A stretch of DNA of 63,390 nt, the filler included, from Folioceros fuciformis (taxonomy: Eukaryota): NCBI GenBank assembly GCA_049999805.1. It is 10 parts of 10 records of this genome, joined end to end, with 100 filler letters (N's around TTAATTAATTAA, not from the genome) between each part and the next. Parts side by side here need not be neighbours in the genome. Positions count along the whole stretch, not along the records: positions 57,581 to 61,422 come from JBNGIO010004841.1; 9 more parts are not named here. One strand, 5' to 3'. The notes beneath the pieces were generated by a model. That model did not search any database and was not told the origin of the DNA. It saw nothing but the letters and a program-made list of their open reading frames with translations. Position numbers and translations under genes: made by a program. Each line of letters opens with the position of its first letter. Positions within the stretch are counted from its first letter, which is position 1. Of this stretch, positions 343 through 63,390 are shown piece by piece.

Positions 343-1985
343 TGTTGATAGATCTCTGCAAAAGTTAAGGGGAGAGTATGTGCCCGGACTGGAAGATGCT
401 CGTGCAAGGAAGTTGATGTAGGCCGAAATCGCAGACCGCCGACAGGAGGAAATTTTTAAGGAGCAATGGAAAGCTAACGAGAGAGGGAGGCAACAGGCCG
501 CAGAGGAGAGACTAAAACGTGAACTCCGGGGAAGGGATAAAAAACCACTCGAGTCTGGCTCTGGATCGGGTCTGATTTTGAGCAAGGGAGTTACAGTGGC
601 CTAGACAGGGGTCGGAGGTGAAGGCTGCCAGGAGAATGCGTGCGGACGAAACTGAGGGATACCACCTCATCCGGATATAAGACATAAGCGGCACTCGGCT
701 TTCCATCCATTAACAGCAAGCCTGGTTGCTTGTAGGCTGAAAGACTAGCATAGGTGTGCTGTTAGTGGGTGGGAAGCCCAGTGATGGTTATGTTGGCAGG
801 AATGGTGGGTTGTCACTTCTAGTGCCAAGCTTACAAGGTGCTCATTCAGGGGCACTAGGTGGGTAACTTTACCGGGACATGTCCCTTGGCCAGCAGAATG
901 GAGGGGGACCTGTAGGCGAGACGGGTCTTTGAAGGGTTGCAGGATGCTCTGAAGGGAAGGGATGAGACGATCTGAGAGAAGGGATGGAATGATCTGAGAG
1001 AAGAGGGGAGAGTGTTGGGAGGCACTAACCATTTTGGTAGTCTTGAGAGGTTGGTCAATTTTGGTAAGAGCACCTAGTGGTGTCCAAGGGACACAACCCC
1101 TATTAGGTCGGATTAAGGTTAGGTCAGAGTTAGGGTTAGGATTAGGTCAGAACTAGGTTTAGGTCAAAGTTAGGTTTAGGTCAGAATTAGGGGCGGGTTA
1201 GGTCAGAAAGAGATTGTTGGGTGGTTGACTGAGGCTAACCCTAGTAGATAGAGATGGAGGTTTGGGCCAAGGTACTATAAGAGTCTAGACCTGCCATTGA
1301 GGAGGGGGCTGTCTACGGTGCGATTTCCCTGGACCTTGTGTGCAAAACTCCTGGCTTAGGGCGCTGAGCCGGTTGAGACTGAACCGAGGTCCTGATTTCC
1401 CTTGCCACTAGGAGGACGCGGAGGATCCCAAGACTGTCAAGATCCGTGTGGCCGGATCCGCAAGGGCTGAATGATTCGCAGGCTGGCTGAAATGAAGGGA
1501 CAAGACCGTGAGCCAAGGAGGGCTATCCAGTCCTAGTATCCACACTACACTTGAAGGCTGCAAGGAGTGAAGTCGTTGTGTCCCAATTTCCAGGGGATAG
1601 CTTAAGCAAAGAGAGGAAGAGTTGGAGTGAAGTGCATAGAAGTGAAGAGTGAGTTGCTAAGGTGCAGGAGTGTGTGCTAAAGTGACAGGTAAAGGGCTGA
1701 AGTGAAGGAGGAAGGACTGAAGTGGAAATCATGAGGAGCTAAAAGATTGAAGATCTGAAGTGCGAGTTGTGTGAGCTGAGTTGAAGATAGGCTAGGTTAC
1801 TGGCCTCTTTGTTGTGTGTGTGTGTGTTCAGGCCTATAGACCGGCGGATAGGTAGAAGTGTGAGTGGATAGCTGTGGGTGCCTTGACACTAGTTCAATTC
1901 CTTAGGAGCGAATCAAAAGAATGCAACGACAATAAGGGGAGGTGTGGCCCTTTGGTGGTTCTTGGGTGCAAGAAATCACTCCACA
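343..1985 (+). mobile_element. Ty3/gypsy (Athila-like) LTR
   Basis: Starts TGTTGATAGA and ends GCAAGAAATCACTCCACA. 1228-1985 is clearly homologous to 57581-58460, and both termini resemble the LTR at 33461-36937 that abuts a tRNA-Asp PBS. No target-site duplication seen; the 5' boundary is less certain. Confidence 0.7.
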
Positions 1986-2901
1986 GGCATCAAAGGCTAC
2001 AAGATTATCAATCGACGTACAAAGTGGGTGACGCACTCCAGGGATGTTGCGTTTGTAGAGGGCATTGAAGCCAGTCAACCAGTGGGAGCTGCCTTGTCCA
2101 AGGACTCAGCATGACCCCACAGCAGAGGTGGAGGAGATGATGGTGGGACAAATCCCGGTACCTATTCCGGGACCCATTCCAGTGCCTGCACAAACTCAAA
2201 CTCAGGTGGCACCAGCTATAGCACAGTCCCCTGCAATGCACACACCCCTGTGAACATCTGGCCGTGTGCACAGTAACCGTAGCTTGTTTGAGTCACCATC
2301 TGTCCTTGATTCTGATGCATTAGAAACAGTTATTCCTACAGCTACACCTGAAGGGCAGCACAGGAGGAAAGCAAAGTTTGCTCACCTCGAGCCTCGGCGG
2401 TCACTTCGAGCTCAGAAACCTCTTGATATGTATGTGTCAGATGATTTCAGGCACCCTAAGACTAATTTTTCTCACTGCCTAGCTGCGAACACCTTGCTCT
2501 ATGAACCCCCAACCTATGAGGCAGCTCTAAGCTGTCCAGATGCTGAGCACTGGCATGTGGCCATACAGTCGGAGCTGGCATCCCTGCATGAGAATAATAC
2601 ATGGGTTATTGTAAGCTTGCCTGTAGACAAGAAGCTAGTGGGGTCCAAGTGGGCGTTTAAGATCAAACTGAAGGTAGATGGGAGCATAGCACGCTACAAA
2701 GGCAAAGTAGTAGCGAAAGGGTATTCTCAAATACCTAGAATCGACTATGATGACACTTTTAGCCCGGTGGTGAAGCTAAACACATTGCGGGTGTTCGTAG
2801 CACTAGCAGCTATCAACAATTTAGAACTAGAGCAACTTGATGTCACCACGGCCTTCCTGTACGGCAACCTGTAGGAAGAGATCTATATGCAGGTTCCCCC
2901 A
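1986..2901 (+). pseudogene. Ty1/copia pol fragment (integrase C-terminus, linker, RT N-terminus)
   Basis: GIKGYK...HSRDVAF begins right after the LTR. RT motifs KWAFKIK, ARYKGKVVAKGYSQ, TFSPVVK and QLDVTTAFLYG follow, with in-frame stops. Confidence 0.9.
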
Positions 2902-14753: not shown

Positions 14754-15057
14754 TGAAGGATCTCTACAGGAGCTACATGGTGAAGGAGGAGAGGAGGAGG
14801 CAAGAGGAGAGGAGAAAGAGAGGTCATACTCTCACATAGAGTCTCAATATGCAAGGGAGCTCAAGGGGGTATTTATACCTTCTAGAAGAGCTCCCTAGGA
14901 AGCTTCACAAGAAGCGCACAGGAAGCTATGCAAGAATCTTCCTACAGATTAGCTTAAGCTAATCTAAACTAATGGTACTTAACTAGACACTAATCTTAGA
15001 CTAAACACATTAGTCAAAGCACATTGGGCTTTAATAACCCTACAACCTTCCACTTAA
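14754..15057 (-). mobile_element. Copia 3' LTR (14754-15044) with PPT
   Basis: Minus strand AAGTGGAAGGT|TGTAGGGTTATTAAAGCCC...; highly similar to the LTR at 60856-61138. Confidence 0.9.
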
Positions 15058-21499: not shown

Positions 21500-21607
21500 N
21501 NNNNNNNNNNNNNNNNNNNNNNNNNNNNNNNNNNNNNNNNNNNTTAATTAATTAANNNNNNNNNNNNNNNNNNNNNNNNNNNNNNNNNNNNNNNNNNNNA
21601 AGTTTGC

Positions 21608-24600
21608 TTGCGCGGGTTAACACCTGCCTACAAGCAGTTCAAGACTTCCATACAGACTCGGGAAAACATTCCCAATTTCTCAGACCTGATTTCTATGTTG
21701 ATCATAGAGGAGAAAAACCTAGGCGAGGAATCATCCTCTAAGCCTAAGGAAAACTCTGAGCAGGCCTTCTATTCTGGCAGAGGCAGAGGTAGAGCCCAAG
21801 GTGGCAGAGGGCAAAGAGGTAGTAGAGGTCGGAATCCCTACCAAAATCAACAACAGAATCAGGAGTCCCAGTACAAGAGTACACGTGGAAGAGGAGAAAA
21901 TTCTCGAGGCTGGGGGAGTCAAAGAGGACGTGGAAATCAACAACAAAATGATGCAAATGCAGACAATAGTGGTTGCTGGACTTGTGGTAGGTTAGACCAC
22001 TTCGAAAGAGACTGTCCAAGGAGAAATCAAGGCAACAAGAGGCAGCAGAACAATTATGCCTCTAGCAGCAGTCAGAATGACTCAGAAAACTTGTTTGTCA
22101 TGCAGCATATGCTTAACTCTGTGTCTGCTAATGGATCCAACAATGGTGAGATTGTGTGGTATGTAGACTCAGGAGCTTCGAACCACATGACATGCCATGG
22201 GGAGTGGTTCAAAGAAATGCAAGTGCTTGACAGACCTGGATATGTAGAAACTGGAGATGACACAACACATGCAATTGTGCATACAGGAACTGTACCTCTG
22301 AAGATGCAGGATGGCAAAGTGAAGTGCCTGGTAGATGTTCTTCACGTACCCAACATCACAAAGAACTTGGTGTCAGTTGGGCAGATGGTTGAGCAAGGAC
22401 TGCAGGTTAGATTTACACCTGCAGGACTCTTTGTTGAAGAGTGCAAGAAAGGCGATCGCCTGATTGCTCAAGGACAGAAGGTTGGACGGATGTTCACCTT
22501 GAACGTGGAGGTTCCTAAGCTGAAGTCAGCCATGTTTGCGAAGGGTACAAGGGTAGTGACAGACCTAGAGATGTGGCACAAACGCATTGGACATGTAAAT
22601 GTGCAGAAGTTGAAGTCCATGCAGCATCAGAAGGTTGTCACATGCATACCCAAGCTTACAGAAAATGGACTGCAAGGTATATGTGAAGCATGTCAACTTG
22701 GGAAACAGCCTAGGAATGCGTTCCCCCATGACAAACATGTCAGCAGATATGTGTTGGATGTTGTGCATTCAGATGTATGGGGTCCTACACAGACTGCATC
22801 AATCGGAGGCTGCAAGTACTATGTGGCCTTCATTGACGACCACACAAGGAAGGTGTGGGTCTATTTCATGAAAGAAAAAAGTGAAGTGATCACTCATTTT
22901 CATACTTTCAAGGCGATGGTTGAGAAGCAGACAGGTAGGCACATCAAATGCCTAAGATCTGATGGAGGGGGAGAGTACTTCTCCAGAGAGTTCAGCAAAT
23001 TCTTATCAGAACAGGGCATTCAACGGCAGTACTCATGTCGTTATACGCCACAACAAAATGGAGTTGCAGAGCGCAAGAACAGGCACATAGCAGAAGTGGC
23101 GAGAGCCTTGATGACAGAGAAGAAGATGCCTCACTACTATTGGGCTGAAGCTGTAAGCACAGCAGTGTACATCATGAACAGAACTCCCACAGCAGCGGTG
23201 CACAGTGTAACACCGGAGGAGAAGTTCACAGGGAAGAAACCTGACTTGTCACACTTAAAGGTATTTGGTTGCATTGCTTATGTCCATATTCCGGATGAGT
23301 TGCGGACTAAGCTTGATCCAAAAGCAGAAAAGTGTGTCTTCATTGGGTATTCTGTTACACAGAAAGGATACAGGTGCTACAATCCCAGTACACGGACTAT
23401 GAGAGTAAGCAGAGACGTAGTCTTTGATGAAATGGGTAGCTGGTACTTTGAAGTACAAGGAAGTAGTGTAGCTGATGTGCTTGAAACTGAGGTAACAAGC
23501 AATGCAGGTCAACAATCACAAGTGTTGAGTGGACCGCAAGCGTCATCAAACTCGACAAATGTTCAGAATCCATGGAGTGGCAGGTTGCGAGGTAGTGTGA
23601 GTCCTACGAGCTCCACAGCTGTGTCTCGCAAAGGGAAGGAAAAAGTCCAGGATTCAAAGATACCAGACCTAAGTGCAGGTGCGGATGATTCAAGCAACTC
23701 TGAGCAGAGCTTGGATGAGGAATTCGGTGTACCGAAAATCGAAACACCTGGTGCAAAAGAGGTTCAATCAGCCCCTGGAAGTGGTTCAATCCCACGGAGA
23801 TCTGGAAGGCAGAAGGTTCCAATACAGCGGTTGACCTATGATAGCTATGTAGCTAGGCACCATGCCTATATGGCAAAGGTTGTACAAGATGTGGAACCAA
23901 GAAGCTTTGAAGAAGCTATTGGAGACACAAAGTGGGAACATGCTATGGATGAAGAAATGAATGCGTTAAATCAAAATGCAACATGGGACCTAGTACAACT
24001 ACCTGAAGGCAAGAAACCAATAGGTTGCAAATGGGTGTACAAGGTCAAACACAACGCAGATGGTAGTATCAACAGGTACAAGGCAAGGCTTGTGGCCAAG
24101 GGATATGCCCAGACATATGGAATAGATTTTGAGGAGGCGTTCAGTCCAGTTGCCAAAATGGCAACAATTCGAACCGTGATCGCACTAGCGGCATCGAAAG
24201 GTTGGGTCCTACATCATATGGATGTGAAGAATGCGTTTTTACATGGAGAATTGCTGGAAGAAGTATACATGGACCAGCCACCAGGTTATGAGGATTTGGA
24301 TCATCCAAATCATGTGTGCAAGCTGAAAAAAACGTTGTACGGACTGAAGCAAGCCCCGAGGGCTTGGCATGAGCGTCTTGCTCAGCATCTGATTCACATC
24401 GGATTCAACATGGCAGATGCGGATCATTCGTTGTATGTGTGCAAAAGTACAAAACGACTGGTCTTTGTGACCATTTATGTGGATGATCTAATCATTGGAG
24501 GTAATCAGTTGGATCAAGTGGAGCAGATCAAGGAACTTCTACAACAAGAGTTCAAGATGGTGGACCTAGGTGAACTGAGGTTCTTTTTGGGCATTGAAAT

Positions 24601-25241
24601 TATACGAACCAACACAGGCATTTGGCTGTCACAGCGGAAGTATGCGTCGGATGTACTAACTAAGTATGGTATGGTTGAGTGCAAGCCAATCTCGATTCCT
24701 TTGGATCAAAATCTAAAGCTCAGTGCTCATGATGGTGAAGCACTTGAAGATCCAACAATGTACAGGAAGATTGTGGGTAGCTTGATATATCTCACTCTAT
24801 CCCGACCAGATTTGAACTATACAGTGGGATTGCAAAGTCAGTTTATGCAGGCGCCAAGAAAGCCACATTTGGACGCAGTAAGGCGAACGTTGCGCTATGT
24901 GAAGGCAACTATGGATCATCCTCTCTTTTATGTTGCAGATTTAGAAATAAACCTGTGTGGATACACAGATGCAGATTGGGCAAGCAGTGTTACTGATCGT
25001 AGATCTACAAGTGGATTCACTTTTTCACTTGGGAGTGCAGCAATTACATGGAGTAGCAAGAAGCAGCCTACAGTGGCTTTGTCTAGTACAGAAGCTGAAT
25101 ACAGAGGCGCAGCAATGGCAGCGTGTGAAGTGACTTGGATTTGTAAGTTACTCGGAGATTTTGGATTGCAGGTCAACGACAAGGTTGTTATCTACTGTGA
25201 CAATCTTAGCAGCATACAGTTGGCGCGAAACCCAGTGTTTC
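21608..25241 (+). CDS. Ty1/copia gag-pol polyprotein, uninterrupted, partial at both contig ends
   Basis: [29 protein letters not shown]...CEAC; HSDVWGP, SDGGGEY, QNGVAER; IYVDD; YTDADWA, TEAEY, YCDN. No stops over ~1210 codons. Confidence 0.97.
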
Positions 25242-25341
25242 NNNNNNNNNNNNNNNNNNNNNNNNNNNNNNNNNNNNNNNNNNNNTTAATTAATTAANNN
25301 NNNNNNNNNNNNNNNNNNNNNNNNNNNNNNNNNNNNNNNNN

Positions 25342-50451: not shown

Positions 50452-53400
50452 TTAACAATCTACAATCTTCCCCTTGCACTTCTTTCTACATTCATCACAC
50501 ACCCATGCTGTTTTTTTGTCTTCCAAGTATCTTACTTGTGTCAATCGAAATAACTCCCACATTCGATTTTGAAGTGACTTTAGAAGCTCTTTCAAACCTG
50601 CATCCATGGTCACTTCACTATCATCCTTATCTGTAACTTGCATTAGGACGAATTCACTCTTAGTCAACATGGATTCCATCATCAATGCAACTGCTTTTAC
50701 GTTGTTTGGTATGTCTATGCCACCAACCACATGAAGGCCTGCTTTGATAAAAAAGAAAAGCACCTTAGCACCATTCACTGAAAGCTTCCGAATCCACTTG
50801 CAATTTTTCTGCTCTACAACAAGAGTGTAGCCAAGTTGTCGTTGCACTACATGATTCCCACCTCTCGCTTCACACATGAGGTGCAAGCGAACTGCCGCAC
50901 CAACCTGAACCAAAGCAATTAACTTTTCTGGGAAAGGTACATCATCACGAGAAAAGTAAGGACGACAAGGAAGCATGGAAGAACTATGATACCCAATAAT
51001 ATCATTCATTTTCGAATCCAATAAGCGCAGAGTATCTTTTTTTAACATTGCTAGCTTCTCTTCATTTTGTCTGATGGCCTTCAAAATCTCCTGTTGATTA
51101 AGATCTAATTTTCTCATAATCTCCTGGTGATATATATCTTGGTTGTCCTTTACATTCTTCAACTCATATTGGATAGCTTCTAGTCGTATCCTTGTTTCAA
51201 TAGCTCCCAATTTTGTTTCACCAGAAAGGTCAGAGTGACTCTGTAGAAAAGAAACATTTGTTGAACTCGTAGTCGCCAAAGGACCCTTAAACTTTGAGCT
51301 TGAAGCAGTCTCTTCTCCTTTCACAGACCAAACATCACTTGTATCTATTTGCTTGCCATGTATAAGACTATCTGCTATCTTCAATATTCGCTCATGTTGT
51401 TGCTCATGAAACTTAGTATTCTCCCATACTATGTCAGCCAAGTCTTCTGCATCCACAAAATCTTCCATGCGCATCGGTATAATAGGGCCTTGATCATGAA
51501 TTGAAGGCCAATAATATACTCGATCCAATATGTTATGCATAGCAAAGAATCCCTCACCGCACTTCAAAGCTTGGTTTTCATCTAAAAGAAGCTCTCTAAA
51601 ATCCTTTTGAAAACATACTTGCTTTTGTCTCTCACTACAAGATATCAATTCACGCACACAATAGGGATTGATGATACCTTGCATTAATGCAACTCCTGGG
51701 CAACCTTTTGGCGAAGCACAAAAAACTGTCAATTCATCAAGAATATGACGTTTCACAAATGTATTAGCCAAATTGGAATGTTGTTTTGATCTGATGAGTA
51801 TGTCAATATGATCACCAATCACTTCTCCACCACAAAATTCTATCAAAATATCAATGCCATCGCAAGCCATCGAGATAAGATTGTATCCAAACTTGTATTG
51901 ATAAGGATGCATTCCTAAGTTGAGCTCAGAAAACAGATGATTTCGTAAGACCACCTAAAAACAAGGAAATACGAAAAATGAATAAAACTAGTCACCCTAT
52001 ATAGATTAGTGTATGTTTCATATTCTTCAAGAAAAGTAATTTAGATTCAGAAATAAAGAGTACCTGGAATCGTGGAAAAAAACCTTCTGTTAAGACCGTT
52101 CGACGTTGATCTTCGCATTGTAATCTACGCCCAAAAAATTCATATCCTTCATCTTGCAGAATGGACGTCTCATCTTGGGATAGCCATTTTAAAGCCCGTG
52201 GATTACTAGAGCTTGAGGGGTAACAAATTGTCGTTGGAATGTAGAAGCCTTGTGTTTTTCCATCTTCTAGAGTAGCTTCACAACACAATTCCAACTCCAC
52301 CATAATATTCACCAAGTCTTGCGTTTTGAAGTTAATATGATTAGAATTGATTGTAAATATAGAATCAAGAACATGACTAAGATGCTCTCGTCTCACGAAC
52401 CCTTGTTCACTAACTTCTTGTGTTAATGGGGAATTTGGTTGAATAAGTTTACCTAGAAAATCGTGAGTAATCCAATTTGGATTTACTACTCTAAGATTTA
52501 AGTTTTTGAAATAAATAATATTTCCACTATCATGCAGATACGATGAAATGGCAATTACAATGTCACTTAGGTCAGTAGGATTAAATCTAATTAATTGTTT
52601 ACATTGTTCTCTACAAAAGTCAGCAAACTCTTTCTCGGTCATGAAGGATTTAGAAGGATGCTGTGATGTCCACTTTACTAAGGCACTAGTTACCTTCTCA
52701 CATACTTTAGGTACTTTAACTCCCTCTTCGCAAAACCATTTCAATGTTTTTGACACTTTAGACCATATTTGTTTCACATCAATTTTAACATAAGTGTCAA
52801 TTATTTCCATATCCAAAGAGAAACTTATTAGATCTTTATATTCTTCCTTTAGTTTAGTTAATATTAGTTGTAACATATTTTGAATAGATTCTCTTTGTTC
52901 TTTAAATTTATCTAGATGAGTGATTACAACAAATAATTCTGGTTTCTTGTTCTTTTTCTTTTGAACATTAGATGCGATAAACTTTAACCAATATCTCAAT
53001 TTCTCCTCAAATTGTGTGCTAATTTCACGACCAGCTAAGACTTTTGCTTGTTCATAGTTAAAAGGACTAAACACAAACAAAAATACGCAAGCTTGGTGAA
53101 TATTAGGGAAGAGGAAATCATGAAGGATGCGATACTCATCTTGACCAGCTAAATCCCAAAAGCTTACTTGTATGCCATCTTTAGGATGAATGAGAGACTC
53201 CACTTCTATCCCTTCAGTCTTTTTCCACGTCTTTTTCTGTGAAGCAGACTTCGACCAAGGAAATCCCCAAACGCATTTCATCTTTTTAGAGCAAAGCAAT
53301 TGAGAGATTGTTTGCCTCAATGAGGTTTTCCCTGTAACATCAACATTCCATCCTATTAGTTAGTTACAAAGATATATTTTAATAAAATAAAATAAAATAA

Positions 53401-53618: not shown

Positions 53619-54712
53619 CTGCATAAATACAAGAACATGACCCCGCGGATTACGATGTCTCTGCTATGCTTGCCAGCCAAAGCATCGTTCGTGTACACCC
53701 CAGCATCACTGCCCCCGTCCTGAGTAAGGGCAACGAGGTTCAGCCTGTCACTGATCAATTCCAATCGATGGCAGGATGGTATTTTGCTTTGTGACGTTGC
53801 TGCCACTCGTACCCGTGATCCTTATCTGTTCGACGTTCACGTCCAGGCTTAGGCTCCGATCAGCCCGCTGCTGCCATTGCCGCCCCTCGAAAGGTACACC
53901 CGGTGATCCACCGTGGGCGCCAGAGGTAGAGCCATAGCTCAAGAGAAAATGTTGAATTCTACACGCGGAGATCACAAAGGGAACCTATTGTTCCACCTGT
54001 GCGGCACATGTTCTGTTGAGGTGAAACATTACAGTTGGCACCAGATTTGAAGTTGCCGCTGCCTGTGCCACCTCCATCACCTGTGCATTTCTCCCCAAGT
54101 GTGTAGACGCCCGAATGTGTCTTTACCATCATGGAGTATGTGCCTCACGGTAATCTGCAGACCTCGACATGTTTCGAAGCGTTGGGCTTACTGTAGAAGC
54201 GCGCATGTATACCAATACGCATGTGTCTGTCTCGATACAGTCTGGTGTTGTTGGTTCAGGAGAGAATGTCACTCGAATGTCAGCTCTGATGAAACGTAGT
54301 GAGCCCGTGTCTTGAGTCCGACCTACTTCGGATGCAGGTCATGTCAACTATCAATTATAGCCACCAGCACAGGCCGGCGCAAGATCAGGGTCACATCCGC
54401 GATTTACATCTGGGGTGGACTCCATTTTCTCGACAGATGTCTGAAGTTGCTACGTGATGGTCTTCGCACTCCTCTTCAGGAAGCTAGCGTTCTTTGTACT
54501 CTTGTGGAGGAAGCCACCGTAACCGATACCACATGAGAAGTGGTTTATTACAACATATTAAAATTAGTTAATGAAAAATACCTTGAACTATATGAAAGGT
54601 ACCTAAAAATGAGTTTTCTAGACAAGGATTAGAAAGCATCTTCTAAATAAAGACAAAAAGCATCTTCTTGAAGGAGGAGGCCAAAGTCAAGCCCACAAGG
54701 GAAGGGGCAAGT

Positions 54713-54891
54713 CAAGGACCAAAGCATGGAAGGGCTAGGAGCTTATAAAGGCCTAGCCAAGGACCAAAGCATGAACGAGCTAGGAGCTTATAAAGGCCTA
54801 GCCAAGGACCAAAGCATGGAAAGGCTAGGAGCTTATAAAGGCCTAGCCAAGGACCAAAGCATGGAAGTCTAGGAGCTTATAAAGGCCTAGC
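54713..54891. repeat. 45-bp minisatellite x4
   Basis: CAAGGACCAAAGCATGGAAGGGCTAGGAGCTTATAAAGGCCTAGC at 54713, 54758, 54803 and 54848. Confidence 0.97.
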
Positions 54892-55199: not shown

Positions 55200-55432
55200 T
55201 GACGCTTCGACCCTCTGATTGCTACAGCTAGGCTGACGCTTCGTCCCTCTGACTGCTGCAACTAGGCACGAGGCTCCTCCGTTGTTCAAGTGCGTTCAAC
55301 TAACAATCCCTCTGACTGCTGTTGCTAGGCACGAGGCTCCTCCGTTGTTCAAGTGCATTCAACTAACAATCCCTCTGACTGCTGCAGCTAGGCACGAGGC
55401 TCCTCCGCTGTTCAAGTGCATTCAACTAACAA
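55200..55432. repeat. 34-bp duplication merging into a 63-bp minisatellite (x3, runs off the contig)
   Basis: TCCCTCTGACTGCTG...AACTAACAA at 55244, 55307 and 55370. Confidence 0.95.
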
Positions 55433-55532: not shown

Positions 55533-57480
55533 ATAACACCCTGGATGTCTCTTTTAGAGGTCTGCAATGCACTGTTACAAATCCCCAACATAAAAATAAA
55601 GTATTAGCCACAGGTGCACCTTTCCATGACCTGTATCAGCTGAACATTTCCTCCAAGTTTGGTCTCAAACCTGCACAAGCACACGCCAATGTCAGCCGTG
55701 AAACCAAAAGGAGGGAGGCAGTTATGTTGTGGCACTGCAGACTTGCCCATGTAAACTTTGACAAGCTAAAGGCAATGGTGGCCAGCCCAACCTTTATAGA
55801 GAGCCATTTGTGCTTCAGTTTGCAGAAAGACAGTTCTGCGAGTCGTGTGTGTTTGGCAAACACCATCGGCTGCCATACAAGGATGTGAATCCTACTCGGG
55901 CCACCAAGGCACTTGAGCTGGTCCACACTGACCTGTGCGGCCCTATGTCTACAGCTTCCCTAGGAGGAGCACTCTATTTCCTTACATTCTTAGATGACTG
56001 GAGTAGATATGCTGTGGTATACCTGATCAAGGAGAAAAGCCAGACCTTGGGTTGTTTTCAGGAGTATGTACCATATGCACAATGGCAGACTAGAGAAACT
56101 CTGATTGCCCTGCGCAGCGACAACGGGGGTGAGTTCACTTCAAATGCCTTCAAGGATTATTGCAAGGAGCTGGGGATAGTCAGGCAACTCACCGTACCCT
56201 ATACTTCCTCGCAAAATCCTCTAGCAGAGTTGAGTAATAAGCATCTTCAGGAATTTGCTAAGTCTATGCTAAAGCTGTCTGGTCTTTCCCGTGATTACTG
56301 GGCAGAAGCCATAGCAACTGCAGTCTATGTCAGAAATAGAGTACCCACTAGTGCATTCTCGGGTGCCACTCCCTTCCAGAGATGGAAAAAACATAGGCCC
56401 CGAATTAACCACTTGAGAATATTTGGGTCTCCAGCTTATGCACACCTGTCAGAACAGCAAAGGGTTAAGTTAGATTACAAAGCCCGAAAGTACATCTTTA
56501 TTGGCTATACAGAAGGTATAAAGGGCTATAAGCTGTTTGATCCCTCTACTAGAACAACAACACATGCACGCAATGTGGTATTTAATGAGCAGCTACTCCT
56601 GAATTCTGTTGTACCCCAACCTGACCTTGATGATGACCATGAAGGCGTTACAAGTCAGTCAGATAGTCCTCCTTCCTTTCCAGTAAATCAGACTTCAGCT
56701 GTTCACCCTTACGTTCCAGCTAACCAGAACCAGACAAGTTCTACCCTACAGCAGTCTGATAGTAACACAGAAGAGGAACCCTCAGACTTCCCGGATGATG
56801 ACTCTGTCAGATTTCCAACTGACACACCTGCAGTAGACACTGAAATTAGGGAATCATCTGTGGAAGATAACTCTGGAATAGAGGGACTGCATGACAATAT
56901 ACCTGAACCTGAAGAGGTAACAGCTCCAAGACGAAGCTCTCGGAGGCACACATCATCTCCAGCTGACTGGAAGGAACCACCTTTGACCTACCAGTCATTT
57001 CTAGTGCAAGATGGGAATGAACCACTAGACCTGGAAGAACCTCAATCATATCAGGAGGCAATCAATTCAGTAGACAAGGAGAAGTGGACTGCTGCAATTC
57101 AGTCCGAGTACCAATCAATTATTGATAATAAAACTTAGGTGTTGGAGGACCTTCCTCCCGGACGCAAAGCGGTCACATGCAAATGGGTGTTTAAAAAGAA
57201 ACTAAACTCAGATGGTTCAATTGCTAGATACAAAGCACGCTTGGTTGCACGAGGCTACAGCCAGGTAGCAGGTCTGGACTATACTGAAACATTCTCACCT
57301 GTTGTACGAGCAACATCTGTGCGGACCCTACTGGCGGTTGCTGCACAACATGACTATGCCATGCATCACATGGATGTGAAGACCGCATTCTTGAATGGCA
57401 CTTTGGAGGAGACTATCTACATGCGCCAACTTGAAGGGTATGTAGATAAAAATCACCCAAACAAAGTTTGTAAGTTGTTA
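55533..57480 (+). pseudogene. Copia INT-RT, close relative of the 4324-7069 element
   Basis: [54 protein letters not shown] at a conserved Trp (57136). Confidence 0.95.
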
Positions 57481-57580: not shown

Positions 57581-58460
57581 ACTGAGGCTAACCCTAATAG
57601 ATAGAGATGGAGGTTTGGGCCAAGGTAATATAAGAGGCTAGACCTGCCATTGAGGAGGGGGCTGTCTACGGTGCGATTTCCCTGGACCTTGGGTGCAGAA
57701 CTCCTGGCTTAGGGCGCTGAGCTGGTTGAGACTAAACCAAGGTCCTGATTTCCCTTGCCACTAGGTGAACGTGGAGGATCCCAAGACTACCAAGATTCAT
57801 GTGGCCGGATCCGCAATGGCTGACCACCTTGCATGCTGGCTGAGGTGAGGTTGCAGGGCCGTGAGCCAAGGAGGCTACCCAGCCCTAGGCCTCGCCTTTG
57901 CCTTGAAGGCTGCAAGAAGGAAGGTTGTTGTGTTCCAAATTGCAGGAGAGAAGGGTTGAGTTGCAGATTTTGGAAGTGGAAGTGAGGGGCTGGAGGGTGA
58001 AGTGAAGTGAAGTGCTGAAGTGAAGGACTGAAGTGCTGAAGTGAAGTGCTGAAGTGGTGGAATGAAGTGTTGGAGCTGGAGTGAGGAGCTAGCTGAAGTT
58101 GAGGTTCTCGTTCAGCTGCAGAGGTAGACTAGGTGCTGAGAGTTGGAGGCCAGACTTGGGGCTAGAGCCTCCTCTTAGCACTGAAGTGATTGATACTTGG
58201 AGCTGAAAATGAGGGCTGAAGACAATGCTGGAGTTCTCATTTTGTTGAGGCTAGGGTTGGTGTTGTGGTAGGAGCCGAAGATAGGACCGAGACTTCTGAC
58301 CTATTGCTGTAGCACTTGGTATATGCTGATAGATAGGGTGAGATTAGGGAGATGTAGGTAACCTTGACATTAGTTCACTCCCTTGGGAGCAAATCATAAG
58401 ACTGCAACGATAATAAGGGGAAGTGTGGCCCCTTGGTGGTTCGCAAGAAATCACTCCACA
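57581..58460 (+). mobile_element. 3' part of an Athila-like LTR (family of 343-1985)
   Basis: Alignable with 1228-1985; ends GCAAGAAATCACTCCACA; no PBS follows. Confidence 0.85.
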
Positions 58461-58534
58461 GCTTATCACTCAAGTGTCCAACTACTCCTCACGCTCCATT
58501 GCCTTGCACTCCACAGATCACCATAAAGGCAACA

Positions 58535-59191
58535 ATGGCCACACTAAGTACTATTGAGCTCACGTTGCTTGTGGTGATTGTCTTCATCCTCGGCGCCTTC
58601 TGTTACTAGCGGTCTTCAATCGCTCACTCGAGTTGCGCACACTCCAGAATTTCCTGGCTTGAGATGGAAGACTCTGTTCAAGGTCTCAAGTGCCTGGGGT
58701 GTGAACGCTTGTAGATACCAGTGCGCAAATTCTCTAAACGTCAGTCCTACCTTCATGCAATGAACTGTCTTGACTCCAACATAGTGTCCTTCGAGTCTCC
58801 TACTTGTGCTCCACTTCCTACAGATGGCTCAAAGGGCAAGACTGCAAGGAGAATTCACAACTTCGACAACAAAGGAAATCCAAAACAGGTGTTTGCAGCT
58901 GCCTCAGTGGACTTTGAAAAGGTTGCTTGTAAGGAGACAGAGCAGAAGTGCAAGCAGGCTGGTGTGGTGGATGTCAGTGTAGACCCAAGCATGGAGGAGT
59001 TTTTGCGCTTCACCAAGGTGCCTCTTCCTATCGACTTTGAGGATGAGAAATAGAAGGAAAAAGAGTGGGGACGAAAGCCTATGAAGAGTGCACCAAGGAA
59101 AAGGAGCGAAGCAAAGAAGCCTGAGCCTCACATTACTGAAACTAGTATGTTGGTCACCTATAGCTGTAAGTACCTAAGCTCTGTTTGCTGA
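58535..59191 (+). pseudogene. Antisense ORF in copia 3' region with N-terminal hydrophobic helix
   Basis: 219 codons in one frame with three internal TAG (58607, 58712, 59051); MATLSTIELTLLVVIVFILGAFCY; CLGC. Confidence 0.5.
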
Positions 59192-59322
59192 CGACCTGTA
59201 CATATTCTAACCCATATTCCTACTGTACAACCCTTTTTGAGGAGTTTGCCAAAGCCAATAAGACACAAGAAGAATTGATCAAGTATCTGAACAAAGATGG
59301 CAAGCTCCCACACAAGGGTTAG

Positions 59323-60855
59323 CTAGTGAGCAGTGCCCTTAGTATCAACAAAGGGAATTAGGCAAATACCAGCAGCAGACGTGTGTTTTTCATGAGCTAG
59401 TTTAGATAAAGCCTTTGTGAGAAGGTCTGATACATTGTCCTCAGTTGGGACTTAAGGAACTGTTACCTCTCCATTATCTGCTACCTGACGTATGAAATGA
59501 TGGCTGATCTCAATATGCTTTGATCGTGCATGGAATACTGGATTCTTTGTAAGTGCTATAGAGGACTGATCGTCACACCAGAGGGGAGTTGGACTAATCT
59601 ATTGTAGCCCTAACCCCTTGACAAAACTCCGAATCCAAATAATATTGTTAGATGCTTGTGTCATGGCTGCATACTCAACCTCAGTTGAAGAGAGACAAAT
59701 TGTAGGTATCTTTTTACTGGACCATGACACTACAGAAGTGCCCATAAAAGTGCAGTTTGCAGCTACACTTTGTCTCGTGTCTAGATCCCCTGCCCAATCT
59801 GCATCACAGTATGCTGTAAGATTCAAACCCTCCTTGCATTTCCTAAATCGTAAACCCTTTCTGGCAGTTCCTTTTAAATAACGGAATATACGTTTTATTG
59901 CTGTCAAGTGTACAGGTCCAGGGTTTTCTAGAAATTGACTGACAGCTCCCACTGCCCTGGTGATGTTCATCCGAGTCCAACTAGACAGATAAATGAGAGA
60001 ACCCATAGCCTGTCTGTAAGGTGTTTCAGTCATAGCTTGTTTCTCTTCTAGGGTAACTAGGCACTGTTCTAGGGAGAGTTTCTCACCAACAGCCATAAGC
60101 CATAGGAGTGGCAACTGGTTTGGCATCTAACATATTGAAACGCTTAAGGAGCTGATGGACAAAGTGTTCTTGATGTATGTTAATTGTACCATCAGCTTTA
60201 TTGAAATGAAACTAAACACCCAAAGAGAAAGTGAGTTCCCCTAGATTAGTCATCTCAAATTTGGAAAGAAGAATGTCCTTAATCTTAGCCATCATAGTTG
60301 GCACATTGCTAAAGAGAAAGTTGTCATCAACATAAACACTGAGTATCACAAACTCATCATCATTCCACAAGACATATACGCTAGTGTTCGCATCAAGACA
60401 AAGAAAGCCAAGTTCTATGAGCAGCTTGTGAACTACCTTATACCGGGCTCTTGGAGCCTGTTTAAGCCCATATAAAGTCTTAAGGAGCTTACACACCTTA
60501 TCTTTATGAACAATGAAACCTTCTGGTTGACACATATATATGTCTTCTTCAAGCAAGCCATTCAGAAATGCTGTTTTGACATCTAGTTGATGCACAAGGA
60601 GATTGTAGTGGGAAGCTATAGCCAGGAGAATTCTTATAGATGTAGACTTAACAACGGGTGCAAAAGTCTCGTTGTAATCAAGTCCAGGAATCCGGCTATA
60701 GCCCTTTGCAATAAGACGTGCTTTATACCTTCCTACAGTGCCATCGGTGTTGAGCTTTTTCTTAAAGACCCATTTGCATTCTACAAGCTTTCTAGCTTTA
60801 GGAAGGTCCACTAATTTCCAAGTTTGATTTTTAAGGAGTGATTTATATTCAGATT
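59323..60855 (-). pseudogene. Copia RT-RNase H
   Basis: KWVFKKK, RYKARLIAKGY, QLDVKTAFLNG, VYVDD, YCDADWAGD, STEVEY, SDLLTK. Confidence 0.95.
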
Positions 60856-61152
60856 TGTAGGGTTATTAAAGCCCAATGTGCTTAGACTAATGTGTTTAGT
60901 CTAAGATTTGTGTCTAGTTAAGTATCATTAGTTTAGATTAGCTTAAGCTAATCTGTAGGAAGCTTCTTGCGCAGCTTCCTATGCGCTTCTTATGAAGCTT
61001 CCTAGAGAGCTCTTCTAGAGGGTATAAATACCCCCTTGAGCTCCCTTGCTATTAAGACTCATTGTGACCTCTCTTTCTCCTCTGCTCCTTGCCTCCTCCT
61101 CCCCTCCTTCACCATGTAGCTCCTGTAGCGATCTTACAAGTGGTATCAGAGC
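60856..61152 (+). mobile_element. Copia 5' LTR (60856-61138) and tRNA-iMet PBS (61141-61152), nested in opposite orientation
   Basis: TGTAGGG...CTTACA AG TGGTATCAGAGC; same LTR family as 14754-15044. Confidence 0.92.
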
Positions 61153-62543: not shown

Positions 62544-62665
62544 GAATCGCAATCGCACTCGACCTGCGCATTTCCTGTCTCAAATTGAGAACGGCGAGAC
62601 TGTAAATCGATCCTGTGGATTGTAAATATGAAAACTGTACAAGGAATTGCTCAGAGAGCATATGA

Positions 62666-62808
62666 GAGATGAGTCACGAAGAGTCACTGCGAGATGAGTC
62701 ACGAAGAGTCACTACGAGATGAGTCACGAAGAGTCACTACGAGATGAGTCACGAAGAGTCACTACGAGATGAGTCACGAAGAGTCACTACGAGATGAGTC
62801 ACGAAGAG
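62666..62808. repeat. 25-bp minisatellite x5.7
   Basis: GAGATGAGTCACGAAGAGTCACTAC units from 62666, nearly identical. Confidence 0.98.
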
Positions 62809-62928
62809 GCATGACAGGTCATGCATGGGCATAAAACTGCAGTCCTAATTCCACGGTCAGCTTATGTCTATGTTTTCCTACATGCTCATACACTCCCTAA
62901 CAGCCCTTCTTTCATACTCATCCATCCC

Positions 62929-63390
62929 TAGGTCTTCTCGAGCTCGTATTCGATAGGTCTTCTCGACTCGTATTCGATAGGTCTTCTTGAGTTCGTATTC
63001 GATCTTGTTCAGGTAAAGGAGCGGGCTCTTGGCTTTTAGCTCGACCTTGCATCCAAGCGTTTCGAATCGCACCAGCAACTTTCGCCACCGTGATGAGATT
63101 TGGCTTAGGTTTGGCCCACCCCTTGGCTTTTTCTCTCTCTACATGCAGTTGTGGGGTTGCCGTTGTCGATACAGGGTCCCATTTGGCACGTTGTCCTGTT
63201 GGGGGGCACCGCATTGCCACTCATGATGCAGTTCGGGATGTCATGTTCTCGATGGCTAAGGAGAATGGGTTTCTTCCGTATAGGGAGCGTCCATATACTT
63301 TGCGCAATGGGGTTTCACTTAGAGCCAACCTTTTCTTCACTAAAGGAAAACAGGTTTGTGTTGCTGATGTGGTTGTTATGGATCCCACTA
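62929..63390 (+). mobile_element. CRE-like (RLE-type) non-LTR retrotransposon, post-RT CCHC and endonuclease region
   Basis: Frame from 63000, absent from the ORF track because it runs off the end: RSCSGKGAGSWLLARP...F..VMRFGLGL...CSCG...HLARC..GGHRIATHDAVRD...RE......RANL.....ADVVVMDP. Confidence 0.85.

Follow-up and report, generated by a model that had tools for sequence, protein, structure and literature searches.

We analysed a 63,390-nucleotide stretch of joined contigs from the hornwort Folioceros fuciformis, hereafter the window, in which one contig (57582-61422) carries a remnant of a copia retrotransposon together with an antisense open reading frame (ORF). The genome gave one LEAFY match, which is of the hornwort type: its DNA-binding domain has Gln at 312, His387 and a Lys replacing Arg390, and it scored 218 bits with PDB 9fwy, compared with 181 and 159 for two other LEAFY entries. 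This signature is reported for hornwort LEAFY, and such a form is also noted in some ferns (10.64898/2026.04.13.717636). A Pfam scan identified the copia reverse transcriptase (RT) next to the ORF as RVT_2 (E 1.6e-64). RT and RNase H, the only parts of the polyprotein retained in this copy, are encoded on the - strand and terminate at 59323-59325, 131 bp from the ORF stop. Since pol lies on the - strand and ends beside the stop of the ORF, the ORF is convergent with it and antisense. An initial annotation had described an ATG frame convergent with copia pol and interrupted by three TAG codons with no frameshift, and this was borne out: the frame has 218 codons followed by TGA, and the internal TAGs fall at codons 25, 60 and 173. 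The same annotation suggested checking whether other members of the family lack these TAGs; among 15 sister copies compared, nearly all that cover the positions are open there (Table 1). Read contigs showed 0 differences from the window across 58663-58905 and 58876-59413, in runs that may be the source sample, and the stops at codons 60 and 173 are therefore not assembly errors. On shuffling the bases of the ORF segment a mean of 11.6 stops was obtained, with P(<=3)=0.0026 without correction for how many frames were inspected.

Copies, linkage and selection on the antisense frame

A protein search of the genome (87 Mb in 7240 contigs), in which only the best candidates from a fragmentary assembly were scored, gave 20 matches to the ORF on 16 contigs, and a second query added no further contig. 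Convergent copia RNase H was observed within 1.5 kb of the ORF in 12 of the 16 loci and at 1.6 kb in a 13th; the remaining three run into a contig end on the pol side, and two of these have the family's long terminal repeat (LTR) region. The accessory gene proposed from the window copy was found joined to the same pol on these 13 contigs, between pol and the 3' LTR, and under purifying selection. No match was shown outside an element on the 16 contigs, three of which could not be checked on the pol side. The copies were found through the ORF, and the linkage counts do not measure the share of pol copies that bear it.

The complete organisation was seen in one copy (L054), in the order LTR, primer-binding site (PBS), gag, integrase, RT, RNase H, antisense ORF, polypurine tract (PPT) and LTR, spanning 6127 bp and flanked by a 5-bp target-site duplication (TSD). 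A second copy with paired LTRs (L051) is a 4610-bp deletion derivative, also with a matching 5-bp TSD, which has lost most of pol and kept the ORF. The LTRs of the family are 229-253 bp long with TA...TA termini; those of L054 and L051 differ within each pair at 14/228 and 16/241 sites, and the ATG of the ORF is separated from the 3' LTR by 155 and 187 bp, respectively. We take the PBS to be of the tRNA-Met type. L054 and L059 gave a colinear match to a copia polyprotein in the gag-protease-integrase-RT-RNase H order. The family has the features of Ty1/copia, namely an RVT_2-type RT, this polyprotein order, and paired LTRs with a PBS, a PPT and a 5-bp TSD. On an RT search it was 36-57% identical to mixed matches, which indicated no single named copia lineage. 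The ORF is a genuine third gene of this hornwort Ty1/copia family of about 6.1 kb, arranged as LTR-gag-pol-antisense ORF-LTR. A distant relative (L055:2005-8897) has longer repeats, of about 490 bp, and its ORF is separated from RNase H by 1.6 kb.

Coding status was determined in a DNA-only alignment that comprised 12 copies; the other four of the 16, L055, L056, L059 and L063, were excluded as too distant, internally deleted or too short. In the conserved core of the ORF (codons 44-180) we counted 4 stops per 1608 codons in the ORF frame, none of them shared. Each of the other five frames had 40-135 stops over the same 1608 codons, including stops common to at least four of the 12 copies; the lowest of these counts belonged to the pol-sense frame that shares the wobble base, with one of its 40 stops common to 10 copies. 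An excess of third-position changes was evident in the same alignment. In a protein-guided comparison of the ratio of nonsynonymous to synonymous differences (pN/pS), for which pairs below 60 codons were dropped and the mapping is biased low, the median over 115 pairs was 0.38 in the ORF frame, 1.0-1.35 in four other frames and 0.47 in the pol-sense wobble-sharing frame.

Between sub-branches, the ratio of nonsynonymous to synonymous substitution rates (dN/dS) of the core in the DNA alignment was 0.10-0.23 (p<=1e-6) in 14 of 16 pairs; for pol RNase H, measured in 10 of those 14 pairs, it was 0.08-0.43. In the two youngest pairs the core looks neutral, as expected of dead copies. Stops were rarer in the core (4/1215) than in RNase H (21/1916) of the same nine copies, and trees of the core and of pol recovered the same main groups. 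We are close to certain, taking these statements jointly, that the ORF travels inside transposed units, shares the history of pol and was under protein-level selection as strong as that on pol, and that the window copy is a defunct relic truncated on both sides.

The encoded protein, its subfamilies and its surroundings

The helix, the CLGC motif and the Lys-rich tail described for this frame by the initial annotation were all recovered. The best 19-residue Kyte-Doolittle (KD) mean of the window protein is 2.44, from residue 4, and the maximum beyond residue 30 is 0.64; residues 6-23 form the sole confident helix of the AlphaFold model. The helix lies in a leader of 43 codons, and its KD value was 2.1-2.7 in all five N-termini tested, four of which carry a higher net charge in residues 24-40 than in residues 1-8. 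The positive-inside rule relates such a bias to membrane topology. The helix could alternatively be a cleavable signal peptide. A Cys stands at its end in 10 of the 12 aligned copies, and CLGC follows about 30 residues past it, at residues 53-56. This is where the Cys/His motif of the core begins, of which Cys53, His74 and Cys78 are retained in 12/12 copies and Cys56 and Cys72 in 11/12, the window being the exception at Cys72; the most distant copy still has the first two Cys, with His further along. Six Cys are conserved in the family protein. The ATG at codon 44, with which the core starts, has a purine at -3 and G at +4 in all 12 copies. The Lys-rich tail corresponds to the basic patch of Table 1. 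In one copy (L059:2952-3410) an internal deletion removes the first two Cys and fuses the helix straight to the remaining core.

Half of the aligned copies (6/12) form subfamily B, which the initial proposal of a membrane-anchored protein does not appear to fit; it may apply to the helix-bearing subfamilies A and C. All six B copies share a TGA at codon 41, and a 1-nt deletion at codon 11 is common to the five whose leader can be aligned. The B-branch cores, at a synonymous divergence (dS) of 0.38-0.53, nevertheless have dN/dS of 0.16-0.23. Since they stayed selected despite the lesions in their leader, the core most simply appears able to function in the absence of the helix. A core in the cytosol or nucleus is thereby favoured over one that is secreted or fusogenic, and the membrane anchor seems to be optional. 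Loss of the helix from subfamily B by way of an intron was considered and found to be unsupported, the shared stop being TGA and not an AG acceptor. In three of the six B copies (L054, L058 and L060) the first ATG opens a hydrophobic ORF of 49-51 codons that overlaps Met44. This shifted frame had pN/pS of 0.44-0.82 in four of six pairs and 1.05 and 1.70 in the others, none reaching p<0.05; translational control by such an upstream ORF is possible. When L054/L057 were compared with L060/L061, codons 181-217 gave pN/pS of 0.22-0.25 (p<0.01) in a frame shifted after a 4-nt insertion, and subfamily B may have a C-terminus of its own.

Searches for relatives returned little. The window protein had no Pfam match at E<=1, and the 18 members of its alignment gave only two matches, both at chance level. 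No homolog was detected among 74 candidates for the window protein or among 2641 for the 18-row alignment, both sets covering near lengths only, with fused or longer forms unsearched. The sole outside relative came from a search of 1.84 billion representatives: P0002, an unnamed singleton on a 1658-bp contig, matching at 54% over residues 82-213 (E 6e-28). Metagenome and viral contigs gave 145 and 9 pattern matches, of which none was confirmed; PDB sequences gave no match or one at E 1.3, PHROGs one match at E 0.037 in 1 of 17 members, and the ESM Atlas no match for P0002. ESM Atlas matches of a sister-copy core scored at most 0.83 (0.78 for a zf_UBZ cluster), which is within the range of chance, and they were not used. 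Known zinc-finger families gave no Pfam or PDB sequence match, the structural models being too poor for a fold search. The gene family is apparently undescribed, and new in its carrier, its host and its protein.

Table 1. Features of the antisense ORF, its copia family and the adjoining elements (window positions unless a locus is given)
Feature	Position	Strand	Remarks
Antisense accessory ORF	58535..59191	+	218 codons; ATG 58535, TGA 59189-59191; broken here by three stops
N-terminal hydrophobic helix, residues 6-23	58550..58603	+	signal anchor or signal peptide; in frame in subfamilies A and C, cut off in B
Internal stop, codon 25	58607..58609	+	absent from 7/7 covering sister copies
Conserved core, codons 44-180	58664..59074	+	ATG start in 12/12 aligned copies; dN/dS 0.10-0.23
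Cys/His motif	58691..58768	+	family pattern C-x2-C-x15-C-x-H-x3-C
Internal stop, codon 60	58712..58714	+	open in 12/14 covering copies
Internal stop, codon 173	59051..59053	+	open in 13/13 covering copies
Basic patch, residues 174-200	59054..59134	+	10 K/R in 27; leads into variable, weakly constrained tail
Spacer between the two convergent stop codons	59192..59322	.	131 bp; about 80% alike in three close copies
Copia pol remnant (RT, RNase H)	59323..60855	-	stops and frameshift; 5' side cut by foreign LTR
Family's own sequence ahead of the ATG	58461..58534	+	74 bp; 85-91% identity to three close copies
Terminal part of a different high-copy LTR element	57582..58460	+	displaces family 3' LTR; not part of the family
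LTR of a third element	60856..61138	+	truncates pol; PBS follows at 61141
Family elements with paired LTRs	L054:1468-7594 and L051:1876-6486		LTR pairs and TSDs

Both LTRs of the window copy itself are missing, and what adjoins the ORF upstream is foreign. This sequence matches 18 other loci, all 18 of which terminate at an identical CA, and its read depth in run X1 reached thousands, compared with 17-55 across the ORF. It therefore represents the LTR end of another element, whose insertion lies 74 bp ahead of the ATG. The loci have mixed flanks beyond the CA, except that five of the 18 continue into a common PBS-like motif, presumably of the type found in tRNA-Lys-primed gypsy elements, and the same LTR family is present at window 1229-1986 and in L013-L030. 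A candidate PPT and LTR start of the copia family at 58370-58390 was rejected, the region belonging to this other element. Because depth is low at 85% likeness, a hidden young high-copy subfamily close to the window copy is disfavoured. The PBS of the third element is presumably of the tRNA-Met type; its short LTR family has very high depth and recurs at window 14851-15045. A similar-looking insertion truncates RNase H in the sister copy L050, from about 3104. The + strand copia at 55533-57480 was rejected as a member of the family, its RT being 61% identical and of another family.

Elsewhere in the window, long ORFs at 50452-53359 (- strand), continuing to about 53620, presumably belong to a Roco-type (ROC GTPase plus COR) protein gene, as judged from motifs. 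A 1249-codon open copia polyprotein at 21548-25297 (+) fills a whole contig and represents a young element of another family. Tandem arrays with periods of 45, 63 and 25 bp were seen at 54702-54890, 55244-55432 and 62641-62836, and an open frame with Cys/His motifs at the end of the window (62991-63389, +) resembles, we assume, the tail of a non-LTR or DIRS-type retroelement.

A proposed transposition helper and the competing explanations

It would be reasonable to propose, with slightly less than even confidence, that the ORF encodes a trans-acting transposition helper which faces the cytosol or nucleus and serves in counter-silencing or RNA handling. The protein would, quite probably, be translated from a separate antisense transcript arising in or beside the 3' LTR, so that it is made apart from Gag-Pol and acts in trans. 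Its working part would be the core from Met44, and the helix an optional N-out/C-in tether lost by one subfamily, a step which we hold to be rather more probable than its converse. At the weakest step, to which we give a little less than an even chance, the Cys/His motif might bind zinc and, with the basic patch, nucleic acid, so as to shield the RNA or DNA of the element from silencing or to help in RNA handling. The antisense RNA may have an additional regulatory role. The model draws on analogy with Grande and Retand, whose antisense genes have their own promoters, and with a regulatory role that has been proposed (PMC7264820). A bolder version is unlikely, though it deserves mention: this could be the first copia lineage with a family-wide selected antisense gene, encoding a new zinc-binding family that switched in evolution between a membrane-tethered form and a soluble one placed behind an upstream ORF, and serving the element in counter-silencing or in spread within a land plant whose haploid phase is dominant.

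Several observations weigh against the helper proposal. Every one of the 12 aligned copies is interrupted somewhere between codon 1 and the end, because of which the family looks extinct in this assembly, and the pairs used for dN/dS are not mutually independent. The leader was itself selected in A-A and A-C pairs (dN/dS 0.18, 0.18 and 0.31, p<0.004), and since this selection is clear the anchor mattered in A and C; it was not seen in one A-A pair (0.47, p 0.12) or in the C-C pair (1.01; one copy frameshifted), and two leader estimates that include L062 are unreliable, the 5' part of that copy being unrelated sequence. The B leaders have a dS of only about 0.15, against about 0.5 at silent sites of the core. 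Since they are less diverged, late recombination may have spread the lesions, which would undo the argument for an optional anchor. Constraint on the basic tail is weak (dN/dS 0.4-0.6, not significant), searches of Pfam, PHROG, PDB and large protein sets found no functionally characterised homolog, and the AlphaFold models, at mean pLDDT (predicted confidence) of 51.7 and 36.1, are of no use past the helix. The two LTRs have TATAAA motifs on the ORF strand, but these map to different places. No RNA run was listed as containing the stretch and one guessed to be RNA missed the ORF, neither of which we count as evidence. Zinc binding, nucleic-acid binding and counter-silencing would follow from the motif and from analogy alone.

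The strongest competitor, though improbable, is an integration or chromatin adaptor, in which the core would bind the pre-integration complex or chromatin and steer insertion or nuclear entry. The zinc-finger-like motif and basic patch would suit such a protein, as would the soluble form that seems viable in subfamily B; Grande GENE23 is nuclear with a proposed role in nuclear entry (PMC7264820), and non-TGCA copia elements are located near genes (PMC9804982). The selected membrane leader of subfamilies A and C fits a nuclear protein poorly, however, and Pfam scans detected no chromatin-reader domain. Selection on the leader in two subfamilies counts for another rival, a membrane protein for cell-to-cell spread, whether a substitute for env resembling Drosophila sORF2/FAST or one resembling a plant-virus movement protein, carrying particles to the germ line. 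The single helix at the N-terminus, the more basic flank on its C-terminal side and the Cys that ends it in most copies agree with this, and precedents exist in sORF2 (10.1101/2025.03.14.642691) and in the 70-aa single-helix minus-strand ORF of sunflower Athila 14 (PMC11728184). We regard it as less likely again than the adaptor, since half of the aligned copies share the stop that removes the helix while their core remains selected, the protein does not start with MGxxxS/T, just 2/5 N-termini have a flank that reaches +3, and the tail, at about 195 aa, is longer than the 150 aa allowed for sORF2.

Marginally behind in probability is a secreted Cys-rich protein with a cleavable signal peptide and disulphides, with an extracellular role such as giving carrier cells or gametes an advantage. 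The helix does stand at the extreme N-terminus, small Ser-rich residues come after it, as L008 shows best, and the protein has its six conserved Cys; against this, selection on the core continued after B lost the leader, an invariant His sits within the Cys cluster, and the codon 44 ATG is in frame and in the same favourable context in every aligned copy. A captured host gene, carried as a passenger with no role for the element, is very improbable and already largely refuted. LTR elements do transduce host genes (PMC7264820), and the assembly is fragmentary and was searched for best candidates only, but no match was shown outside an element (3/16 loci being uncheckable on the pol side), selection equals that on pol over saturating silent divergence, the trees agree, and two very large protein sets hold no plant homolog save one unnamed singleton. 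That the ORF strand is non-coding, as the shadow of a pol-sense ORF or a structured non-coding region, is refuted as the main explanation, for the low pN/pS of the pol-sense wobble-sharing frame is countered by the stops in that frame and by the third-position excess in the DNA-only alignment.

Comparison with known systems

What the antisense extra genes of plant LTR elements do, and how they originated, is not settled, and so far the question has been posed almost only by large gypsy elements of flowering plants. Our search of the literature found no description of an antisense accessory gene in a copia element or a hornwort, most subscription papers being outside the search and no hornwort genome paper with annotated TEs being among those found, so that absence from print is not established. 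The initial annotation had stated that antisense 3' ORFs are known from gypsy and that env-like ORFs of copia are sense. In the survey reporting extra ORFs of copia, antisense eORF-3'R is given for SIRE alone, at 1%, although the Bianca and Ikeros rows (5, 2 and 4, 6) are ambiguous and rare antisense cases are possible (PMC6317226). That survey applied a cut-off of 250 codons, and hornworts and liverworts are not named in its main text (PMC6317226), which suggests that surveys of this kind miss such genes. Finders built on TG...CA ends would likewise miss the TA...TA elements of this family.

In its termini and short LTRs the family resembles the rare TATA-ended copia elements, with 229 and 253 bp against an average of 229 bp in lotus (PMC9804982); the likeness is descriptive only, 'additional ORF' and 'antisense' being absent from the main text of that paper. 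The Drosophila MDG1-group sORF2 (FAST-like), with which the predicted hornwort protein may be compared, is a small single-pass accessory protein of an env-less LTR element. It has 63-107 aa with an ectodomain, a myristoylation motif and a polybasic patch (10.1101/2025.03.14.642691), whereas the hornwort protein has 218 aa, shows neither the motif nor a patch of the sORF2 kind, has a presumed cytoplasmic part that is not below 150 aa, and misses its helix in one selected subfamily. Hydropathy and charge show in it one hydrophobic helix and a charge bias that would suit an N-out/C-in protein. The aORF(-) of sunflower Athila 14 is, like the hornwort ORF, an extra minus-strand ORF with one predicted N-out/C-in membrane helix, but Athila 14 is gypsy, and its product has a mid-protein helix within 70 aa (PMC11728184; compared by description only).

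The env-like eORF-3'F of Sireviruses (SIRE) shares with the hornwort ORF a copia carrier, the position after pol and a hydrophobic segment (PMC6317226). The SIRE ORFs are sense (74%), in the orientation of gag-pol, whereas ours is antisense, and SIRE elements average 9.9 kb (PMC6317226) against about 6 kb, with 230-250 bp TA...TA LTRs, in the hornwort family.

The closest parallel in arrangement is found in the antisense ORFs (aORF-3R) of gypsy elements. Grande, RIRE2, Retand, PvRetro13 and Boty are all gypsy. Protein-coding antisense 3' ORFs have been described in maize Grande (gene23), rice RIRE2, Silene Retand, bean PvRetro13 and Botrytis Boty (PMC7264820). As in the hornwort family, they lie antisense between pol and the 3' LTR and are conserved about as well as pol (PMC7264820, PMC11963269). 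They are present family-wide, whereas our ORF-based sampling does not give the share of ORF-bearing pol copies, and their distance from pol to the LTR is 2.9-6.6 kb, against about 1 kb here. Of the Retand clusters 97% are tied to TRP28 (PMC11963269); the hornwort protein shows no TRP28 (Transposase_28), DUF390, plant mobile or other Pfam domain, has instead an N-terminal hydrophobic helix and a Cys/His motif, and is carried by copia rather than by Tat-clade gypsy. The signal of selection, the short conserved core and the contrast between anchored and anchor-less forms make its function easier to dissect, and a compact copia family with an antisense gene shows that this design arose independently of the gypsy examples.
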